Below, one piece after another: positions 6,125-15,407 of a stretch of 64,000 bases of DNA. Positions within the stretch are counted from its first letter, which is position 1. The number at the start of each line of letters is the position of its first letter. Source of the stretch: Chthonomonadales bacterium (lineage in GTDB: Bacteria; Armatimonadota; Chthonomonadetes; Chthonomonadales; CAJBBX01); NCBI GenBank assembly GCA_037443035.1, contig JBBIPC010000003.1:79952-143951 (forward strand), given 5' to 3'. The notes below the pieces were generated by a model, which made no database searches, had not been told where the DNA came from, and was given only the letters and a program-made list of their open reading frames with translations. A program made the position numbers and the translations under genes.

Positions 6125-6556
6125 CTAGAGATGCAGGATGTTCACATCTCCCCATTTGTGCCTGAGGTACTCGGCCACTAGCCTCCGATGGCACTTGTGT
6201 GCTAGGTCCTCGCTGCAGAGCAAGCACGCCTCATTGAAACGCTCTCGATCGAGGTTCTCCACCGCGCGATCTTTCATGAGCTCGATGAATCGGGCTGCGT
6301 AGCCTGGCCAATCCACGCGCCGTTTTCGATAGTCGGTCAACAGCTCCTGCGTGGGGGCGAGATCAGGAATGTGCTCGTACCCGATCTGCAGAATGGCCTC
6401 TAGGAAGAACTCCAGGTCATCTTTCTTGGCGAAACCGGCGAGCTGCGATACGTTGTTGAGGCGAACGTCCACGATCTTGCGCACACCGGCATTGCGAAGG
6501 CGATTGAAAAAGCACCTTGCCGTGGTTCCTGTGTACCCGATGGTAAAGATGTTCAT
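6125..6556 (-). CDS. DUF488 domain protein (short subfamily)
   Basis: 143 aa. MNIFTIGYTG, VDVRLNN and CLLCSEDLAHKCHRRLVAEYL are DUF488 (YeaO-like) hallmarks. The start overlaps the upstream stop by 4 nt. Confidence 0.8.
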   Translation of the reverse strand: MNIFTIGYTGTTARCFFNRLRNAGVRKIVDVRLNNVSQLAGFAKKDDLEFFLEAILQIGYEHIPDLAPTQELLTDYRKRRVDWPGYAARFIELMKDRAVENLDRERFNEACLLCSEDLAHKCHRRLVAEYLRHKWGDVNILHL

Positions 6557-7182
6557 GCTCCAGGCCCCCTTCCCGCGTGGCGATGTCGCCGACGTGAGAC
6601 ATCATATGCGATTCTCTCAGCTTGACGAGCGTACGCTTCGGCGACGATTTCTTCCCTGCTCCTGAAGAGATCGTACTCCGGCAGTCTCTGTTCTCGCACC
6701 ATCCGTCCCACAGTATCCTCGTGCTCCTCGAGACTGCCATCGGCAAGAATGTGCACGACTCTGACGTCAAGGGACGCCATATGCCGTGCGATGAGGAGTG
6801 TACGATGGCAGGATAGGGGATCCTTCTCGGCACACATGAGCGCTGGCGTGTGTTCTCTCAATAGCTGCAGAAGACGCCGCACACCTTCCCGAAACGGAAC
6901 GCTCGCCTCGACACGGTCGTACTCGACCCTGCCATCCTCATAGCACGCTGGGTCGCGCGGTCGTCCACCTAGCTCGTCGCCGAGATAGTAATACGCAAGG
7001 CCGCTGCGTGCCAGCAAGGCGCTGAACCGCTCCCTATCGAACTGCGGGTTGTGCTGGCTGTAAGGATGCGATCGTACGTCCACGATCGCCGTAACACCAT
7101 GCCTCCGTACCATGCGGACGAAATCCTCGGCCTGGTGGTTAGAGTGTCCGACGGTGTATAGAGTGCTCAACAGCCCGCTCAT
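6553..7182 (-). CDS. DUF488 domain protein (long subfamily with C-terminal extension)
   Basis: LYTVGHSN, IVDVRSHPYS and CAEKDPLSCHRTLLIARH are DUF488 hallmarks. The ATG at 7182 is preceded by GGAGGGG. An alternative ATG at 7209 has a weaker RBS. Confidence 0.8.
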   Translation of the reverse strand: MSGLLSTLYTVGHSNHQAEDFVRMVRRHGVTAIVDVRSHPYSQHNPQFDRERFSALLARSGLAYYYLGDELGGRPRDPACYEDGRVEYDRVEASVPFREGVRRLLQLLREHTPALMCAEKDPLSCHRTLLIARHMASLDVRVVHILADGSLEEHEDTVGRMVREQRLPEYDLFRSREEIVAEAYARQAERIAYDVSRRRHRHAGRGPGA

Positions 7183-7218
7183 GGACCACCCCTCCAAAGA
7201 GGCCGGCATCGCGTATCG

Positions 7219-7971
7219 TCAGCTCTCACGTGAGGACTCGTCGCGCAACAATGCGGCAAACTCCAAGCGTAGTCGATCTACAAACTCCTTGGTCCCAAGA
7301 GCCTGCGTGACACTCTGCGACGTGATGACTGCTGCAGCGAGCTTGTAGGCGTAGCCATGGAAGGGTTCTCCAAGACTGATGCACAGCAGCGCGTCGTCCA
7401 TAGAGTACACGCTCCCCGCTTCCCAGTCTTGCTTCCGAATCTGCGGATCGGTCACCACGAGCTTGTAGTGCTCGCCACAGAGATCGAACGAGGCTCGAAT
7501 ACGTTGTTTGCTCCAGCCCCGCAGCTGTTCGTACGTGGCCTGGAGTTCCACATTCTCCGGCCGAACGAGGTACAGCGACCTCGATAAACCCCGCAGACAT
7601 TCCTCTGGCACTCGGTCATTGTACCCACCGGAGCTCGAGTCTCCGTTCAGCCACAGAGGTCCTTCGGGAGACTCGACAAGCTTCCCCAGTTCCTCGCATG
7701 TCATGTAGCCAGCCCTCCTCCAATCACCGCTGGCTATCACGTGGTTCTCGGTGTGATGGCGGAAAGGTGCGTGGGAAGCAACGGGAACCTCGACGATGTG
7801 GGAAGGCAGAAACTGCCAGTAGTAACTCGTCGGCACAGGTCCCCCAGCTTCATCTGCTACCAGCCGGATCCACGGCCCGAAGCCCTGGTCGGTGACAAGC
7901 CGACCAGCCACACACCGGCCACCGTCCCGCTTCGAGTTCGCCAGACATACCAACTTCCGGTACTCCCCCAT
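7219..7971 (-). CDS. Uncharacterised 250-aa protein with N-terminal KLVCLANSKRDGGRCVAGR motif (possibly a dual-OB type family; name uncertain)
   Basis: Clean ORF with coding-like bias on the same strand, immediately upstream of the two DUF488 genes. No enzymatic motif recognised. Confidence 0.7.
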   Translation of the reverse strand: MGEYRKLVCLANSKRDGGRCVAGRLVTDQGFGPWIRLVADEAGGPVPTSYYWQFLPSHIVEVPVASHAPFRHHTENHVIASGDWRRAGYMTCEELGKLVESPEGPLWLNGDSSSGGYNDRVPEECLRGLSRSLYLVRPENVELQATYEQLRGWSKQRIRASFDLCGEHYKLVVTDPQIRKQDWEAGSVYSMDDALLCISLGEPFHGYAYKLAAAVITSQSVTQALGTKEFVDRLRLEFAALLRDESSRES

Positions 7972-8175
7972 ACGCTACCTCCTTCGCATGCATCTCACAT
8001 CCAATGGTGTGGTCATATTCGTGCGTGCGCATTCAAGAAGAGACTCGAAGGCAGTGGGCAACAAGCGGAAGAACCGATACAGACTCCCGCGAAAGAGACT
8101 CGCGATCCATGCGGCGCCCATCTAGCGGAGCCGGTCGGAGGAAGGGGTTCGCGCAGCGACAAAAAGAGATGCGTG

Positions 8176-10008
8176 TTAGGACGAAGGAGTGCCGAGATCG
8201 AGCCGTCTGTGCCATCGGACGTGATCGCAGCGCCCGGCGGTATCCAGAGTCACATCCAGCGTGACGGCCGTTCCGGCCCGCAGCTTCTGGACCCCGAGGA
8301 CGTGCGCGGGTACGACCAGCGCGAGAGCATTGAACACTCCGCCCTCGGTTCCCTTGGCGGCAATCACCTGGACTTCGGAATCGCTGGATGTGGGCGGACG
8401 GCCAGCGCCGTACCGCACTTCGACGATCCGTAATGGCCGGCCAACTCGAAGTCGTAGCATCGCCCGGTCGCACTCTGGGACACTCCCTGACCGGTATGCG
8501 GCATCCTCGATGAAGCCCATGGAGTGAATTCCCAGGTACAGCGCCTCCGGGGTCCACGTCGCATAGAGGTCCGCTACGGGCGCGCGCGTCGAAGGCGGGA
8601 TGAAGCCCGCGTCGCGATCCCAGCGCAGCATGGCTCGCAAGTACCTGAAATCCTCGAGCGGGTCCCCATCTGCCCGAGGTATCGCATGCGGGACCGAGGG
8701 AGCGTTCCTTGCGTCGGCGTGGACCCGCTCCAGGTTCAGGTTGAGAGCGGCTTCCACCATCTCGTCGTAGGGGACGTCGTGGATATCCACCAGCCCCATG
8801 TTGTAATCTTCGCCATCCTCGCGACCGTGCGGCGGTTCGTCGTAGTACTGAAACCAGTCTGCCCCAACAACATAGGGGCGCAGGGCGAGTTCGGACAACG
8901 TGCGTGCGAATCCCCGGGCTCTCTCCCGCTGATTCGCGACTACGGGGAAGCCTGAACTGCTGTTGCGGTTTCCGCTGCGGTTCTCGGTGGCGCACATGTA
9001 GAACTCCCCGACCTGGACCGGCTTACGGCAAAGCTCGTGGAGGGTGTCGAGATAGTATCGTGCGAAGGAACCATCGATCCAATGCGGGGTCAGGTTCGTC
9101 GAAATCACATCCACATACGGACGCGCGGCCAGTACCACCTCGGGGTAGTAGAAGGACTGGTAGCGGTCGCCCAGGACTAGGCAGGCGCCCGAACACTTGC
9201 GGATGGCCGACGCCGTCACCTCGTAGTAGCGTCGGGCCAGGAGACCGAGCAGACGGCGGTGAACTCGCGCTCCATTCCCACCTGGACGGAGATACAAGAT
9301 TCCGTGATGCTCGAACTCCTCGAACGAGGAGGCCCCCTCAGGATCGAAGTCCTTTTCGAGGCGGGACCAGCATCCCCCGTAGTGCCGTCTCAGGTACGAA
9401 ACGACACGGCGCCTTTGGCCGCTTTCGGGAGGCATCCCGAGCGTCGTTTGCACAAGCACCGAGTTCCACCAGCCCAGCTCGTTGTCGGAATAGAAGCCAA
9501 GTAGTGATCTGGCTCCACGAACGTTCTCGATGGCCGCCCGTGCAGTCTCGTCCACCCTGGCAAGAACGGCCGGGTCCCACATGTCCAACCATGGTATGCC
9601 CGCCGTGGACCCAGCGTGGAGAACCGGTGCCATAGCCATTGCACCGCGGGCCTCGGCAATGAAGCTCGCGTAATCGCTCCAGCCACCGAGCGTGGTAAAT
9701 CCCCAGCTCCTCAGGCGCTCTTCTGTCGCGCGAACCCACGCGGCTTTCGTGCTGTAGTGTCGTGCGGCGCAGTACGACGGTCTCGCCGGGTTGTAGTCGG
9801 CCTCGGCCGAGCCCATGTTCACGCAGCAGACACCCAGCGAGAAAACGCGACGTCCGTCGGGCGCGACGTACCACCAGGTTTGGCCTTCTCGGCGGATGCG
9901 AAAGTTGCCCCCTTCCGGCAGGGAGGAACCTGGCTCGTGTGCACGGAGGCAGTATGCAACCATCAGCGATATGCCGATCGCTGTCAAGACTGCGGGGCTA
10001 GTTGTCAT
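8176..10008 (-). CDS. Putative glycoside hydrolase (TIM-barrel like, family unassigned) with C-terminal beta-rich domain
   Basis: The ORF track gives 8176..10143. The ATG at 10008 ([19 protein letters not shown], signal-anchor like) forms an ATGA overlap with the upstream lipoprotein stop. The FYSDNELGWW and GEFYMCATENRSG segments resemble GH42/GH50-type hydrolases. Confidence 0.65.
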   Translation of the reverse strand: MTTSPAVLTAIGISLMVAYCLRAHEPGSSLPEGGNFRIRREGQTWWYVAPDGRRVFSLGVCCVNMGSAEADYNPARPSYCAARHYSTKAAWVRATEERLRSWGFTTLGGWSDYASFIAEARGAMAMAPVLHAGSTAGIPWLDMWDPAVLARVDETARAAIENVRGARSLLGFYSDNELGWWNSVLVQTTLGMPPESGQRRRVVSYLRRHYGGCWSRLEKDFDPEGASSFEEFEHHGILYLRPGGNGARVHRRLLGLLARRYYEVTASAIRKCSGACLVLGDRYQSFYYPEVVLAARPYVDVISTNLTPHWIDGSFARYYLDTLHELCRKPVQVGEFYMCATENRSGNRNSSSGFPVVANQRERARGFARTLSELALRPYVVGADWFQYYDEPPHGREDGEDYNMGLVDIHDVPYDEMVEAALNLNLERVHADARNAPSVPHAIPRADGDPLEDFRYLRAMLRWDRDAGFIPPSTRAPVADLYATWTPEALYLGIHSMGFIEDAAYRSGSVPECDRAMLRLRVGRPLRIVEVRYGAGRPPTSSDSEVQVIAAKGTEGGVFNALALVVPAHVLGVQKLRAGTAVTLDVTLDTAGRCDHVRWHRRLDLGTPSS

Positions 10009-10325
10009 CGTCGCGGCGGTCCCCCCGGGCGTCCGCCTATCTTGCCTGCGGCTGCGAGCAGAAGCATGCGGGCCGACTGCTCGTTGCCATAGGCAAGTTC
10101 CTTGACGATGAAAGTCCGCTCCTCCTGCGTCAGCTTGCTCCAATCGCCGTCTGTGCGCTTCGCGATCTGGCTCAGCCGGTCTCCTGATTGACGTTGCTCA
10201 GGCGTCAGACCATCGCTGGATCGCTTGCAGCCAACTCCCCACAATAGGAGGCAGCAGGCTGCCGCCAGCCCAAGCTGGCGGCAGCGACTGTACCGTTTGC
10301 GCGACGCCATGACCCTAGGGAGCAT
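10005..10325 (-). CDS. Small lipoprotein (hypothetical)
   Basis: 106 aa with lipobox-like LLLWGVGC after a basic N-region. It is sandwiched between the DUF1559 gene and the GH gene with overlapping codons. An alternative start lies at 10310. Confidence 0.6.
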
Positions 10326-11139
10326 TGACGAGCCAGCGCTGGGGGTTGAGGAGATCGGCAGGACGCACGGCCTTTGCGTGACCGTCGGCGTATGCGCAGT
10401 TCGCGCCGCCCGAATGCTTGCGCCAAGCCGCAGTCAGGCGCGCATTCCAGCCCTCCGGTGGAAGGAGGACGATGCTAGTCACGAGCCAATCCGCCCAAAC
10501 CATGGACGCCGTACCCCAGCACCAATCCACCTCAGTATTGGCATAGATGCCACTGCCGCACCACCAATCGTTGACGTTCCACAAGCCCTCTATGAGCATC
10601 ACGACGTCGGCTGGCCGACCTACCGCCGCCAACGGCGTCGCGTTCTCTACGCCGCCGTACGTCACGCCCACCGGCATCAGCCCCTGGGGTGCGGTCACGC
10701 CGAATGCAGTATTCGTCCCGGAGGCATCTCGATTGAACGCGTTCACCATCAAGGACTGCATCGCAGGTCGTCGGTTCGGGCCCAGGCTCGTCTCGATGGA
10801 AGGATCGACGGAAGGCGGGTCATTCGGGCACCGGAAGATGTCTCGGTTTTTCATGTAGGGCTGGACGCACAGGACGCTGGACCAGAGATAGTGGTTGGCT
10901 GGCCAGGCGCCCCAGTTGTTCTGGTCTACGAACTCGGACTTGGGGTAGTTCTCGTCATAGTCCTGTGTGTACATCAGCACCGCCAGCGCCGTCTGTTTCA
11001 AGTTGCTCAGACAGGAGGTCTGTCGAGCCTTCTCGCGGGCCGTGGCAAAGACAGGAAAGAGGATCGCCGCCAGTATGGCGATGATCGCGATGACAACGAG
11101 CAGTTCGATGAGGGTGAAACCTCGCGCGCGTGCGCTCAT
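10315..11139 (-). CDS. Prepilin-type N-terminal cleavage/methylation domain protein, DUF1559 family (module A)
   Basis: The ATG at 11139 is preceded by AAGGAG. It has [43 protein letters not shown] and a C-terminal YADGHAK (H-X9-DG-like) motif. Confidence 0.85.
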
Positions 11140-11162
11140 GAGCTTTGCTCCTTTCTTACCGG

Positions 11163-12236
11163 TCAAATGGACCGGCTGTTGTCGACGTTGAACTCGCTCT
11201 GCGGGGACGCTCCAGAACTTGACCGTACAGTCAGTGAGACGGGCAGCCTGACCTGTGGAACTGGAATCTCTTCACCCCGCATCTGGGCCATGAGAAGTCG
11301 TGTGGCCGTCATGCCCATCTCCAGGATGGGCATGTGCACGCTAGTGAGCGGAGGGTCGGTGGTCTCGGCAAGCCACGTGTCGTCAAAACCAACCAGCGCA
11401 AGGTCGTCCGGTGCCCGCAACCCAAGCTCCTGCATCCGCTTCAGGACACCAACGGCGCAGAGGTCATTGGCCGCGAACACCGCTGTCGGGCGAACATCCG
11501 GCGGGAGGCTCAGGAGCCGGTCGAGACCTCGAACGCCGTCGGACCAGTCGAAACCAGCCTCGACGACAAACCGTTCGTCTACTTTCAGTCCGGCATCAGC
11601 CAGGGCATCTTCGTAGCCCGCCCGACGCTGCCGAGACGTCGCGATGTGCGGTGTGCCGACGAGGTGGGCGATGCGGCGATGCCCCAGTTCGATGAGGTGC
11701 TGCGTGGCGATCCGCCCACCGTGGTAGTCGTCCGCGTTTACGGAGCATTCGTCTGGCATGGGATCGTGCACGACGGTAACGTAAGGGAACTGCTTGCGAC
11801 GGCAGTGCTCCAGGAGAGAAGTGCCCGGGCGCGGGAGAACGATCACCAGGCCGTCCACTCGGGGCGACACGATGCCGCTTTCGACGGGTGTCTTGCCGTC
11901 TTCGGCGGCTGCGGTGAAGAGCAGGATGTTCTGCTGTTCGGTGATGGCCTGTTCAACGACACCGGCCATGACGCCGCGGCAGAAGGGATTCTGATCCCCG
12001 AATGCGTGGACATAGGGCAAAACCCCGCCGATGGCGCCGGCCTTCCGAGTCTTGAGCCCGCGCGCAGGGGGGGGGGGGACGTAGCCAAGCTCTCGGGCGA
12101 CGTTCCGGATTCGCTCCCGTGTCTCCCCACTGACCCGCGTGCTGGCCGATACGTTTCCACTCAGGGCCGTGGAGGCCGCTGCAATTGAGACACCGGCGGC
12201 CTTCGCAACGTCCCGTATCGTCACGCCTTTGCGCAC
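11163..12236 (-). CDS. LacI family transcriptional regulator (LacI-1)
   Basis: 357 aa. The N-terminal HTH is [23 protein letters not shown]...[12 protein letters not shown] periplasmic-binding-fold sugar sensor domain follows. Confidence 0.9.
12067..12078. repeat. G12 (C12 on the coding strand) homopolymer inside the LacI-1 hinge
   Basis: Counted directly as cgcgca-g12-acgtag. It is read on the minus strand as GTC CCC CCC CCC CCT, giving VPPPP. Confidence 0.9.
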
Positions 12237-12258
12237 CCGCGCACTCCTGGCGAAATGG

Positions 12259-12278
12259 TGATGAACCGTTTCATCACT
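12259..12278. promoter_or_regulatory. Candidate LacI-type operator, GTGATGAACCGTTTCATCAC
   Basis: 20-nt near-palindrome with 9 of 10 arm pairs and a central CG. It lies 23-42 nt upstream of the LacI-1 start codon. Confidence 0.55.
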
Positions 12279-12562
12279 GACGCCAGTATATCATGATCGC
12301 ATTCCACTGTCAAGGGCTGTTGGGCGAATCGTTGGATCCGAATGCAGGGAGCTGCTACGAGCAGAGCGGAACGGTTGGGTGAGAGTTCGCGCTATCGCAC
12401 ATACAGCGTTCTGCCACACCCGGCTCGTTCACAGCGACAGCCACCTCGACTCTGCGGTCGTTGGAGCACGGACGCTGATACTCGGCGGGAAGGATCTCTG
12501 CCGCCATTAAGCCGGCGACCGGCGCTGTCGCCCTGTGTGGCGATAAGCTGCGTCTGCCCCTC

Positions 12563-14258: not shown

Positions 14259-15407
14259 CTAGTAGACGGCGGCCTCCGTCTGCTTGTCGAACAGGTGGCT
14301 CTTGTCCATGTCGAAGACCACCTCCAGCTCGTCACCTGCACGGGCTCGGGTCTTGCTGTCGATCATGGCGATGAGCTGGTGGCTTCCGGCCGTGAGGTAC
14401 ATCTCCACGTCATTGCCTAGCGGCTCCACAACGTCCACTCCCACCTTGACCGTGTTCCCGGCCGTCGGCTTGATGAGACCCTCCAAGTTTCGATCGTAGA
14501 TGTCCTCTGGTCGAATGCCGAAGATGCAATCCTTGCCGACTTCCGATTCGATCCGATCGCCTTTGTCGTGCGGCAGCTCCACCTGAAAGGAGCCTGCGTC
14601 GGCGATGAAACGATCACCGTCCTTCTTGACAGTTACGGGGATCATGTTCATGGCAGGCGAGCCGATGAAGCCAGCGACGAACATGTTCGCGGGATGGTTG
14701 TAGAGGTTGAGAGGCGTATCGCACTGCTGCATGACGCCAGCGTTCAGAACCGCGATGCGGTCGCCCATGGTCATTGCCTCCACCTGATCGTGAGTGACGT
14801 AGATGGTGGTGATGCCCAGGCGACGATGGAGCTTGATCAGCTCGGCACGTGTCTGCACGCGAAGCTTGGCGTCCAGGTTGGAGAGCGGTTCATCCATGAG
14901 GAACACCTTCGGCTCTCGCACGATCGCTCGTCCCAGCGCCACGCGCTGCCGCTGACCACCAGAGAGTTGCTTGGGCTTTCGCTGCAACAGACTTTCCAAG
15001 CCTAGAAGACGCGCTGCCTCGTTGACCCTCCGATCGATTTCCTGCTTGCTGAAGGCACGCCTGGTATTGAACGGCCAGGGCTTTCCGGTGGGAACCCGCT
15101 TGAGCCGCAGACCGAAACTCATATTGTCATAGACGGTCATGTGGGGATACAGCGCGTAGTTCTGAAACACCATGGCGATATCGCGATCCTTGGGCGAAAC
15201 ATCGTTCACCACGCGGTCGCCGATGAGTATTTCGCCGGAAGTCGCCTCCTCCAGGCCAGCGATCATCCTCAGAGCCGTCGTCTTGCCGCAACCGGATGGG
15301 CCGACAAGCACCAGGAATTCCTTATCCCTGATTTCCAGCGTCAGCTTATTGACCGCGATGACCTCTTTGAACTCTTTCGTGAGCTCTTTGAGCGTTACGC
15401 TTGCCAT
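14259..15407 (-). CDS. Sugar ABC transporter ATP-binding protein (MsmX/MalK/UgpC type), no adjacent permease genes
   Basis: It has Walker A GPSGCGKTT, signature LSGGQRQRVALGRA, Walker B VFLMDEPLSNLD and a C-terminal TOBE-like domain. Confidence 0.92.
   Translation of the reverse strand: MASVTLKELTKEFKEVIAVNKLTLEIRDKEFLVLVGPSGCGKTTALRMIAGLEEATSGEILIGDRVVNDVSPKDRDIAMVFQNYALYPHMTVYDNMSFGLRLKRVPTGKPWPFNTRRAFSKQEIDRRVNEAARLLGLESLLQRKPKQLSGGQRQRVALGRAIVREPKVFLMDEPLSNLDAKLRVQTRAELIKLHRRLGITTIYVTHDQVEAMTMGDRIAVLNAGVMQQCDTPLNLYNHPANMFVAGFIGSPAMNMIPVTVKKDGDRFIADAGSFQVELPHDKGDRIESEVGKDCIFGIRPEDIYDRNLEGLIKPTAGNTVKVGVDVVEPLGNDVEMYLTAGSHQLIAMIDSKTRARAGDELEVVFDMDKSHLFDKQTEAAVY

Follow-up and report, generated by a model that had tools for sequence, protein, structure and literature searches.

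A 64,000-nucleotide stretch of DNA from a Chthonomonadales bacterium (assembly GCA_037443035.1, contig JBBIPC010000003.1, positions 79,952 to 143,951), hereafter called the window, carries on its minus strand a compact trio of genes that encode a DuOB protein (A) and two proteins of the DUF488 family (B and C). By its profile matches, the locus is firmly placed as an ordinary, typical member of the known three-gene cassette PDC-M45 and is not a new module. The preferred reading, held at a probability of about 0.55, is that this cassette encodes a DNA-targeted complex that would carry out cysteine-mediated phosphoryl transfer on nucleic-acid termini and would probably act in genome conflict. 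Several lines of evidence lead to it. DNA is suggested as the target by the tandem oligonucleotide/oligosaccharide-binding (OB) model of A and by RecQ-RQC-HRDC-DuOB fusions accompanied by a B-type gene. Chemistry like that of cysteine phosphatases is suggested by the strand-C117-loop-R127-helix arrangement predicted for B, by the ranking of phosphatases of the protein tyrosine phosphatase (PTP) fold in structural searches and by the alignment of the C loop to that of B. The conserved B–C overlap, together with A–B and B–C fusions, points to physical coupling, and a variant made of DuOB, N3a and mSLOG-DUF4326 to modular exchange within the enzyme clade. An accessory or conflict-related character is suggested by the rarity of the family among species genomes, its presence on plasmids and some defence neighbours elsewhere.

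A catalogued cassette

Protein A matches the Pfam family DuOB (PF22557) with an E-value of 2.4e-50 (172 bits, cut-off 27), at model positions 2-210 of 210; an earlier note on this DNA, made from its letters alone, had guessed at a 'dual-OB' family, and the guess proves right over the full length of the model. The same note had recognised two DUF488 proteins. Both are above the gathering cut-off (22.2 bits) of Pfam DUF488 (PF04343), B with E 2.5e-22 (80.2 bits) and C with E 1.2e-23 (84.5 bits), so that all three proteins are matched in the profile check that the note had proposed with DUF488/PF04343 and a dual-OB model. C is also matched by DUF488-N3a (PF22751; E 2.5e-11, 44.4 bits, cut-off 27), while B has no Pfam match to N3a or N3i and lies outside both, being matched by the general DUF488 model alone. 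The DuOB and DUF488-N3 families, to which A and C respectively correspond, presumably belong to the RapZ-C-DUF488-DUF4326 clade within the rhodanese-phosphatase superfamily. The Pfam names DuOB, DUF488-N3a and N3i reportedly come from Burroughs and Aravind in 2023, who are said to have predicted DNA-end processing in virus–host conflict for some members of the clade.

The PADLOC profiles of the cassette match as well: PDC-M45A (PDLC04653) matches A at E 1.1e-56 (protein residues 1-221, model positions 1-228 of 230), PDC-M45B matches B at 1.2e-74 and PDC-M45C matches C at 1.1e-65, the cross-matches of B to the C model and of C to the B model reaching about 1e-8 at most. The order A>B>C corresponds to FAM_01974>>FAM_00888>>FAM_01897 in the supplement of Payne et al. 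2024 (10.1101/2024.01.29.577857), in which cassette CAS_00153 is marked 'Assign as candidate PDC-M45'. The candidate was nominated because copies of it lie within loci of BREX, DISARM or type I restriction-modification systems, and is among 145 candidates that the authors list as untested (Payne et al. 2024, 10.1101/2024.01.29.577857). The window trio consists of the same three families in the same order on one strand and nothing structural differs; it is the setting that differs, since the window copy stands between glycoside hydrolase genes.

Other collections add little. No NCBIfam model matches A, B or C, sequence searches of the PDB with the three proteins gave nothing, and PHROGs has no match for A or B and only weak matches for C, to phage families of unknown function. 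Weak PADLOC matches of A to Cas1 (E ~1e-3) were treated as noise, and a Cas1 relationship was rejected.

The features of the locus are as follows.

7219..7971, minus strand: gene A, DuOB protein of 250 aa (= PDC-M45A), from the list of open reading frames (ORFs), Pfam and PADLOC
6553..7182, minus strand: gene B, putative long-form DUF488 enzyme of 209 aa (= PDC-M45B), from Pfam and PADLOC
6125..6556, minus strand: gene C, putative short DUF488 enzyme of the N3a subclade, 143 aa (= PDC-M45C), from Pfam and PADLOC
7900..7947, minus strand: N-terminal signature of A, C9-LANS-x6-C20-xAGR24, from aligned homologues (n=30)
7183..7218, minus strand: A–B intergenic spacer of 36 nt, holding the ribosome-binding site of B (GGAGG ahead of the 7182 ATG)
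6802..6834, minus strand: predicted active-site loop of B, C117-AEKDPLS-C125-H126-R127, from the B model and conserved residues
6553..6556, minus strand: B–C overlap of 4 nt, ATGA (B stop / C start), from coordinates and sequence
6185..6217, minus strand: predicted active-site loop of C, C114-SEDLAHK-C122-H123-R124, from its hhalign alignment to the B loop and conserved residues
7972..8175, minus strand: upstream intergenic region, presumed to bear the promoter, with a synteny breakpoint near 8054

The earlier note had read these genes accurately, and most of its guarded interpretation holds: none of the outcomes that it named as refuting was seen, including profile or structural matches that would assign the proteins to a known housekeeping pathway. 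The three same-strand ORFs are all found at the coordinates it gave; the 4-nt B–C overlap and the A–B gap of less than 40 nt that it claimed are an ATGA of 4 nt and a spacer of 36 nt between the A stop and the 7182 ATG; and every DUF488 motif that it quoted is present (YTVGHS, IVDVRS and CAEKDPLSCHR in B; FTIGYT, IVDVRL and CSEDLAHKCHR in C). For A, the opening MGEYRKLVCLANSKRDGGRCVAGR is as described; the sequence near which the protein was said to end, HGYAYKLAAAVI, occupies residues 205-216 and is followed by 34 more residues, modelled as one helix. The longest ORF of B is 6553..7209 (218 aa, alternative ATG at 7209). The start at 7182 (209 aa) is likelier, because GGAGG stands ~8 nt upstream of it and homologues measure 201-209 aa.

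Gene A is preceded by the ribosome-binding site GAAGGAGG. A promoter and terminator search of the upstream region 7972..8175 returned no sigma-70-like site and no terminator. On the other side of the trio, an apiosidase-like gene, with the start assigned to it in sister locus L081, begins on the same strand 31 nt before the C stop (window 6125-6155). Its start inside the end of C, where no terminator-like site was found, raises the possibility that the trio and the glycoside hydrolase genes behind it are transcribed together.

Conservation of the trio as a unit

Relatives of A were surveyed by a pattern scan of one genome per species (185,579 genomes), and the best 80 loci were fetched. A confirmed relative is present in 470 of these genomes. 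According to record titles, the best 80 loci span more than 10 phyla, among which are Chloroflexota, Acidobacteriota, Planctomycetota, several proteobacterial classes, Myxococcota, Nitrospirota and Actinomycetota. In 68 of the 80 the order is A>B>C with all three genes on one strand, and a contig end cuts 6 of the remaining 12. By type, 77 loci either combine B with an N3a-type gene (the 68 full trios included) or are too short or degraded to be typed; A occurs with C and without B in three (L068, L076 and L164).

The reverse survey concerned 80 metagenome loci around relatives of C, 57 of them with enough upstream DNA. A is followed by B and C in 46 of the 57 (two with a divergent A), the others having B and C only (4), A and C (1) or C alone (6). 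Clustering of the flanking ORFs across loci disclosed no fourth conserved gene. These surveys show that A, B and C are kept together as one unit in many phyla and share no further conserved partner. The self-contained module envisaged at the outset is thus borne out (A>B>C in 68/80 A loci and 46/57 C loci, with variable flanks), as is the conserved co-occurrence of the three families that a neighbourhood survey was to examine.

Coupling within the unit is also suggested at the level of reading frames. The 4-nt overlap between B and C is kept in L081. Fusions are found between A and B (P0241) and between B and C (P0165 and P0200); a further B–C fusion ORF, in L115, was rejected, its C part alone matching the models.

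Protein A, a tandem-OB protein

The AlphaFold2 (AF2) model of A has a mean predicted local distance difference test score (pLDDT) of 91.9 and displays two beta-rich, barrel-like halves followed by a C-terminal helix (218-249). In Foldseek searches of the PDB, the HIN-200 domains of p202, p204, IFI16 and AIM2 come first, followed by Teb1 and the DNA-binding domains (DBD) A and B of RPA70. Probabilities rise to 1.0, but template modelling (TM) scores are 0.27-0.35 and sequence identity is ~10%. In a search of viral models, baculovirus LEF-3 and proteins resembling single-stranded DNA-binding proteins rank highest. The model supports the placement of A among tandem-OB proteins of the DNA-binding class, and nothing more specific. 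HIN-200 proteins and RPA70 DBD-A/B contain two tandem DNA-binding OB barrels, as does the modelled fold of A; this likeness, at the level of the model, is one of fold class and not evidence of common descent. There is no sequence homology between A and HIN (PYHIN) proteins, and A has no PDB sequence match even at E 10. HIN domains also lack the N-terminal cysteine motif of DuOB and its numerous invariant polar residues.

An alignment of 30 homologues of A contains 39 invariant columns, including C9, C20, C197, E75, N76, N118, D119, R131, S132, E202 and K210, together with L10, A11, S13, G18, A22, G23 and R24 of the N-terminal signature; H77 is conserved in at least 90%. The window protein keeps all 39 positions and bears an extra C-terminal tail of ~30 aa, modelled as a helix. 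A relative of it, P0002 (86% identical), likewise has an extra tail, which does not align with that of the window protein, and both are devoid of an acidic stretch of the family (region 7800-7860, A residues 39-57).

Very divergent DuOB-like proteins precede B and C at L092:777-1508 and L152:2673-3371, with the motif IITDLTRF...VC[LI]AGI...EC[LI]RP. That of L152 alone passes the Pfam DuOB cut-off (35 bits), and neither matches any PADLOC model; existing models therefore do not cover the whole of the A family.

A full RecQ helicase (DEAD, Helicase_C, RecQ_Zn_bind, RQC and HRDC domains) is fused to a C-terminal DuOB domain at L022:2248-4953 and L044:12-2168, in a Desulfobacteraceae genome and a metagenome-assembled genome of Pseudomonadota, and P0371 is a truncated fusion of the same kind. 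At both loci a B-type DUF488 gene comes next and there is no N3a gene corresponding to C. Compared with the window, DuOB and the adjoining B are thus shared, with DuOB as a domain of RecQ. Together with the tandem-OB model, whose nearest matches are HIN-200, RPA70 and LEF-3, these fusions uphold the earlier suggestion of a module acting on nucleic acids.

Proteins B and C, two old DUF488 paralogues

B and C are ~25% identical and are aligned by hhalign with a probability of 97.6%. Cross-phyla orthologues have mean identities to the window proteins of 39.5% for A, 47.1% for B and 55.2% for C. Since B and C resemble each other far less (~25%) than their own orthologues in other phyla (47-55%), sequence comparison confirms them as old, distinct paralogues, in agreement with the initial view of two subfamilies and no recent duplication. 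B consists of the DUF488 core and a conserved C-terminal extension of ~60 aa that C does not have.

Both proteins keep an invariant Cys-x7-Cys-His-Arg loop. In B, the residues invariant among 30 homologues are GHS, DxRSxPYS, PQ, CAEKxPxxCHR, R133 and H144, and C80 is conserved in at least 90%. Among 30 orthologues of C, 44 columns are invariant, including DxRLNNxSQLxGFxK, CLLCSE-x5-CHRR and the cysteines C111, C114 and C122. In the AF2 model of B (pLDDT 87.2), a strand (113-117) ends at the invariant C117 and is followed by a loop, after which a helix starts at ~125-126, at C125-H126-R127. As modelled, this is the strand-Cys-loop-Arg-helix layout of cysteine phosphatases, and Foldseek places PTP-fold phosphatases on top (8dhi, 1rxd, 2f46, SsoPTP, laforin and KAP; probability 0.9-0.99). 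The C loop, C114-x7-C122-H123-R124, aligns column for column with that of B in hhalign.

With the PTP and dual-specificity phosphatases (PRL-1, SsoPTP, laforin, KAP, NMA1982) the B model shares a Rossmann-like fold, a cysteine at the end of a strand, a phosphate loop and an arginine at the start of a helix. It differs from them in that there is no sequence similarity and in that its loop is of the type Cx9R, with a second cysteine beside His-Arg, instead of Cx5R.

The abundance of cysteines might also suit another chemistry. Rhodaneses and tRNA selenouridine synthase belong to the same superfamily, and a sulphur (or selenium) relay could be imagined in which a persulfide on DUF488 would pass by way of the DuOB cysteines to thio-modified DNA or RNA, either marking self or blocking invaders. 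Invariant cysteines are found in all three proteins (C9, C20 and C197 in A; C117 and C125 in B, with C80 at the level given above; C111, C114 and C122 in C), and two cysteines in one loop are unusual for a simple phosphatase. The relay nevertheless appears very unlikely: neither the cassette nor its conserved neighbourhood includes a cysteine desulfurase, an ATP-dependent activating enzyme or a sulphur carrier, the best structural matches are phosphatases and not rhodaneses, and the invariant glutamate two residues past the cysteine, with the arginine at the helix start, fits phosphate chemistry.

Variants and plasmid copies

A relative of A is present on 23 plasmids, some of 4-36 kb, the smallest being a pair of 4,167-bp records. 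In a variant found at L068 and L076 and on plasmids of Klebsiella, Citrobacter, Salmonella and Acinetobacter, B is replaced: DuOB and an N3a-type DUF488 gene come first, like the corresponding window families, and mSLOG-DUF4326 follows N3a in place of the long B-type DUF488. Examples are Klebsiella pRHBSTW-00515_4, Acinetobacter pApiAE13b and the 4.2-kb Citrobacter pRHBSTW-00697_5, whose A proteins are ~28-32% identical to that of the window. The loci L082, L083 and L084 are such small plasmids of Citrobacter, Klebsiella and Acinetobacter, respectively, with DuOB, DUF488-N3a and (mSLOG-)DUF4326; on the 4,167-bp Citrobacter plasmid (L082, NZ_CP056340.1), DUF488 and DUF4326 genes are present and the circular record ends with the DuOB match. 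The Klebsiella plasmid trio adjoins a NotI-family restriction-modification pair and a RelE/ParE toxin gene.

Such copies invite the thought that the module benefits the mobile element itself, through addiction, exclusion or protection of incoming single-stranded DNA, or that it processes nucleotides derived from nicotinamide adenine dinucleotide (NAD) or ADP-ribose, chromosomal copies, including that of the window, then being domesticated or left-over cargo. The variant trio makes up ~40% of a 4.2-kb mobilisable plasmid and recurs on plasmids of 10-36 kb in Klebsiella, Citrobacter, Salmonella and Acinetobacter. SLOG domains bind nucleotides, and the swapped-in partner is mSLOG-DUF4326. DUF4326 has been proposed to process ribose-linked phosphates of ADP-ribose derivatives (Iyer et al. 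2022). This explanation is nonetheless judged quite unlikely. The form with A and C but without B accounts for only 3 of the 80 best loci, the other 77 having B and N3a or being untypable; no integrase, no tRNA among Rfam matches and no flanking repeat accompanies the window trio, which is stably inherited in two related genomes; and the OB fold and RecQ fusions point to polymeric DNA and not to small nucleotides.

One solitary N3a-type DUF488 gene has a protein with ParB_N and HTH_ParB domains encoded directly upstream (L131:549-1340). The arrangement is reminiscent of archaeal ParB-DUF488 fusions, for which CTP binding has been reported.

History and surroundings in this genome

The sister locus L081, a contig of 33.7 kb taken from a public sequencing run, matches window 1-22291 at ~95% identity and carries the trio at the same site, ahead of the same apiosidase-like and GH30 genes. 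The ratios of nonsynonymous to synonymous substitution rates (dN/dS) between the two are 0.26 for A, 0.18 for B and 0.37 for C, the neighbouring genes ranging from 0 to 0.35. Values of 0.18-0.37 show that the trio is under purifying selection and is maintained in this lineage. A is the most diverged protein, at 84-87% identity, the other shared genes standing at 92-100%; positive selection on it was considered and rejected, dN/dS being 0.26 with dS raised too.

Collinearity with L081 is interrupted at 8054, a point 83 nt upstream of A, from which the window has an additional 4.5 kb (8054-12558). This segment contains an ORF of 655 aa (8176-10143) that neither Pfam nor PADLOC matches, along with a DUF1559/N-terminal-methylation protein (10315-11166), and no repeats were found to flank it.

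The surroundings are those of glycan degradation, as the earlier note had described them: GH30_2 and DUF5060/Apiosidase genes lie downstream and a GH5 cellulase further upstream, and homologues of the flanking apiosidase-like gene are labelled Armatimonadota. GC content at third codon positions (GC3), which had seemed lower by eye, is indeed lower in the trio (0.674 against 0.729 for 21 native genes, ~2 standard deviations), but the shift is small and borderline: 4.5% of equal-sized native blocks are as low, and if B is an outlier (0.633), C is typical (0.722). The trio borders have no repeats and no match to an Rfam RNA family (a separate tRNA scan was not run), and no integrase marks the trio in the window. 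A search for a relative with the same flanks but no trio led only to flanking-gene relatives that are at most 65% identical and not syntenic.

A recent transfer into this genome is not supported, given the modest GC3 shift, the lack of repeat borders and the occurrence of the trio at the same site in a ~95% identical genome. Of the horizontal acquisition once suggested, what stands is an old transfer of the family, plausible from its patchy distribution across phyla and its presence on plasmids; what does not is a recent event here.

Defence or repair

In other genomes, the 112 immediate neighbours of the cassette include clear defence genes: PglX (1.9e-251), HEC-01A, mad6, type II/IIG restriction enzymes, NERD with UvrD, and AbiLi. 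At L118:1571-3192, a B–C pair without DuOB directly follows a HipA_2 kinase and DUF3037 pair that corresponds to the PADLOC candidate PDC-M66. A possible enrichment of defence genes near the cassette is at best suggested. PADLOC neighbour matches were rejected as a quantitative measure of it, a housekeeping ABC transporter ATPase having matched mad3; the gene concerned is in the window (14259-15407), is of MalK type and matches mad3 at 1.6e-28, as well as mad8 and AriA.

An accessory DNA or RNA repair function, unconnected with defence, is an unlikely alternative. DuOB would sense damaged or unwound nucleic acid and the DUF488 pair would heal 'dirty' termini, such as a 3'-phosphate, a 2',3'-cyclic phosphate or a 5' adduct, for ligases or polymerases. 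The RecQ-RQC-HRDC-DuOB fusions do point to recombination or repair machinery, an RtcB ligase gene is an immediate neighbour in 2 of the 112 cases, and a UvrA-like gene (identified by eye from its N-terminal sequence only) adjoins the solitary C gene of L153. The trio is stable among metabolic genes in the window and in the sister genome and is under purifying selection, and no homologue of A is present in 50,697 phage records or in PHROGs. A repair role accords less well with a family as patchy as this one (470/185,579 species genomes), with small plasmids on which restriction-modification and toxin-antitoxin genes stand alongside, and with the first discovery of the cassette within loci of the BREX, DISARM or type I restriction-modification kinds; neither a ligase nor a polymerase is conserved beside it.

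Proposed mechanism

In the mechanism proposed for PDC-M45, A, B and C would form one complex, which A would bring to DNA, probably to single-stranded or unwound DNA or to DNA ends. The strand-end cysteine of B and C would serve as the nucleophile and the arginine would hold the phosphate, as in the cysteine phosphatases of the rhodanese-phosphatase superfamily. The two enzymes would remove or transfer a terminal phosphate or sugar-phosphate on nucleic acid, presumably each in a different step. The role would most likely lie in genome conflict, that is, in restricting phages or other invading DNA rather than in core metabolism.

A bolder version is possible but doubtful. Here the tandem-OB protein would be a sensor that loads two cysteine enzymes onto invading DNA, making the cassette a new immune or anti-invader system with a novel end chemistry. 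That chemistry might, for instance, strip or transfer terminal phosphates or thiolate the ends, with the result that the DNA would not be ligated, replicated or packaged.

Several observations weigh against the mechanism proposed for PDC-M45. The most general is that no DUF488 or DuOB protein was found to have a measured activity. For B, the structural matches from Foldseek are weak (E 3e-3 to 5e-2, TM 0.35-0.40), and its Cx9R loop with a second cysteine, in place of Cx5R, could mean a differing chemistry. The many invariant polar residues of A, three cysteines among them, suggest that it may be more than a passive binder, and the window protein lacks a nearly invariant acidic stretch of its family (consensus E-I-S-E-E-E-R-R-Y-E-D-G-x-D-P). 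The fusions lend some support to the earlier hint of a heteromer; each of the three, however, is known from one metagenome contig and could reflect a frameshift error. As to context, none of the 9 flanking genes in the window is a real defence gene, the neighbours being glycan-degradation genes, and housekeeping or ordinary genes make up the majority of the 112 immediate neighbours in other genomes. Moreover, the match of a housekeeping ATPase to mad3 indicates that weak PADLOC ATPase matches are not specific, which inflates the count of defence neighbours.

Significance for the DuOB and DUF488 families

By itself, the window locus adds little beyond another example of the cassette; its extra value lies in a lineage-specific DuOB variant and in the evidence of selection provided by a sister genome. 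The wider interest is in the families. DUF488 is a large, prokaryote-wide family that includes E. coli YeaO, and neither DUF488 nor DuOB has a known activity. YeaO has the same Pfam domain as B and C but is encoded by a stand-alone gene, with no DuOB partner and no known activity. Deletion of yeaO altered CRISPR spacer acquisition in one 2024 preprint, which mentions that there is no literature on YeaO. The statement of the earlier note that DUF488 has no defined activity agrees with the literature, in which no measured activity was found.

A compact, strongly conserved and modular cassette, also present on small, easily handled enterobacterial plasmids, offers a comparatively tractable route to a first function for both families. 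If the sensor and end-chemistry proposal were true, it would provide the first biochemical function for DUF488/YeaO, and cysteine-based chemistry at DNA ends would represent a new type of effector in bacterial conflict systems.

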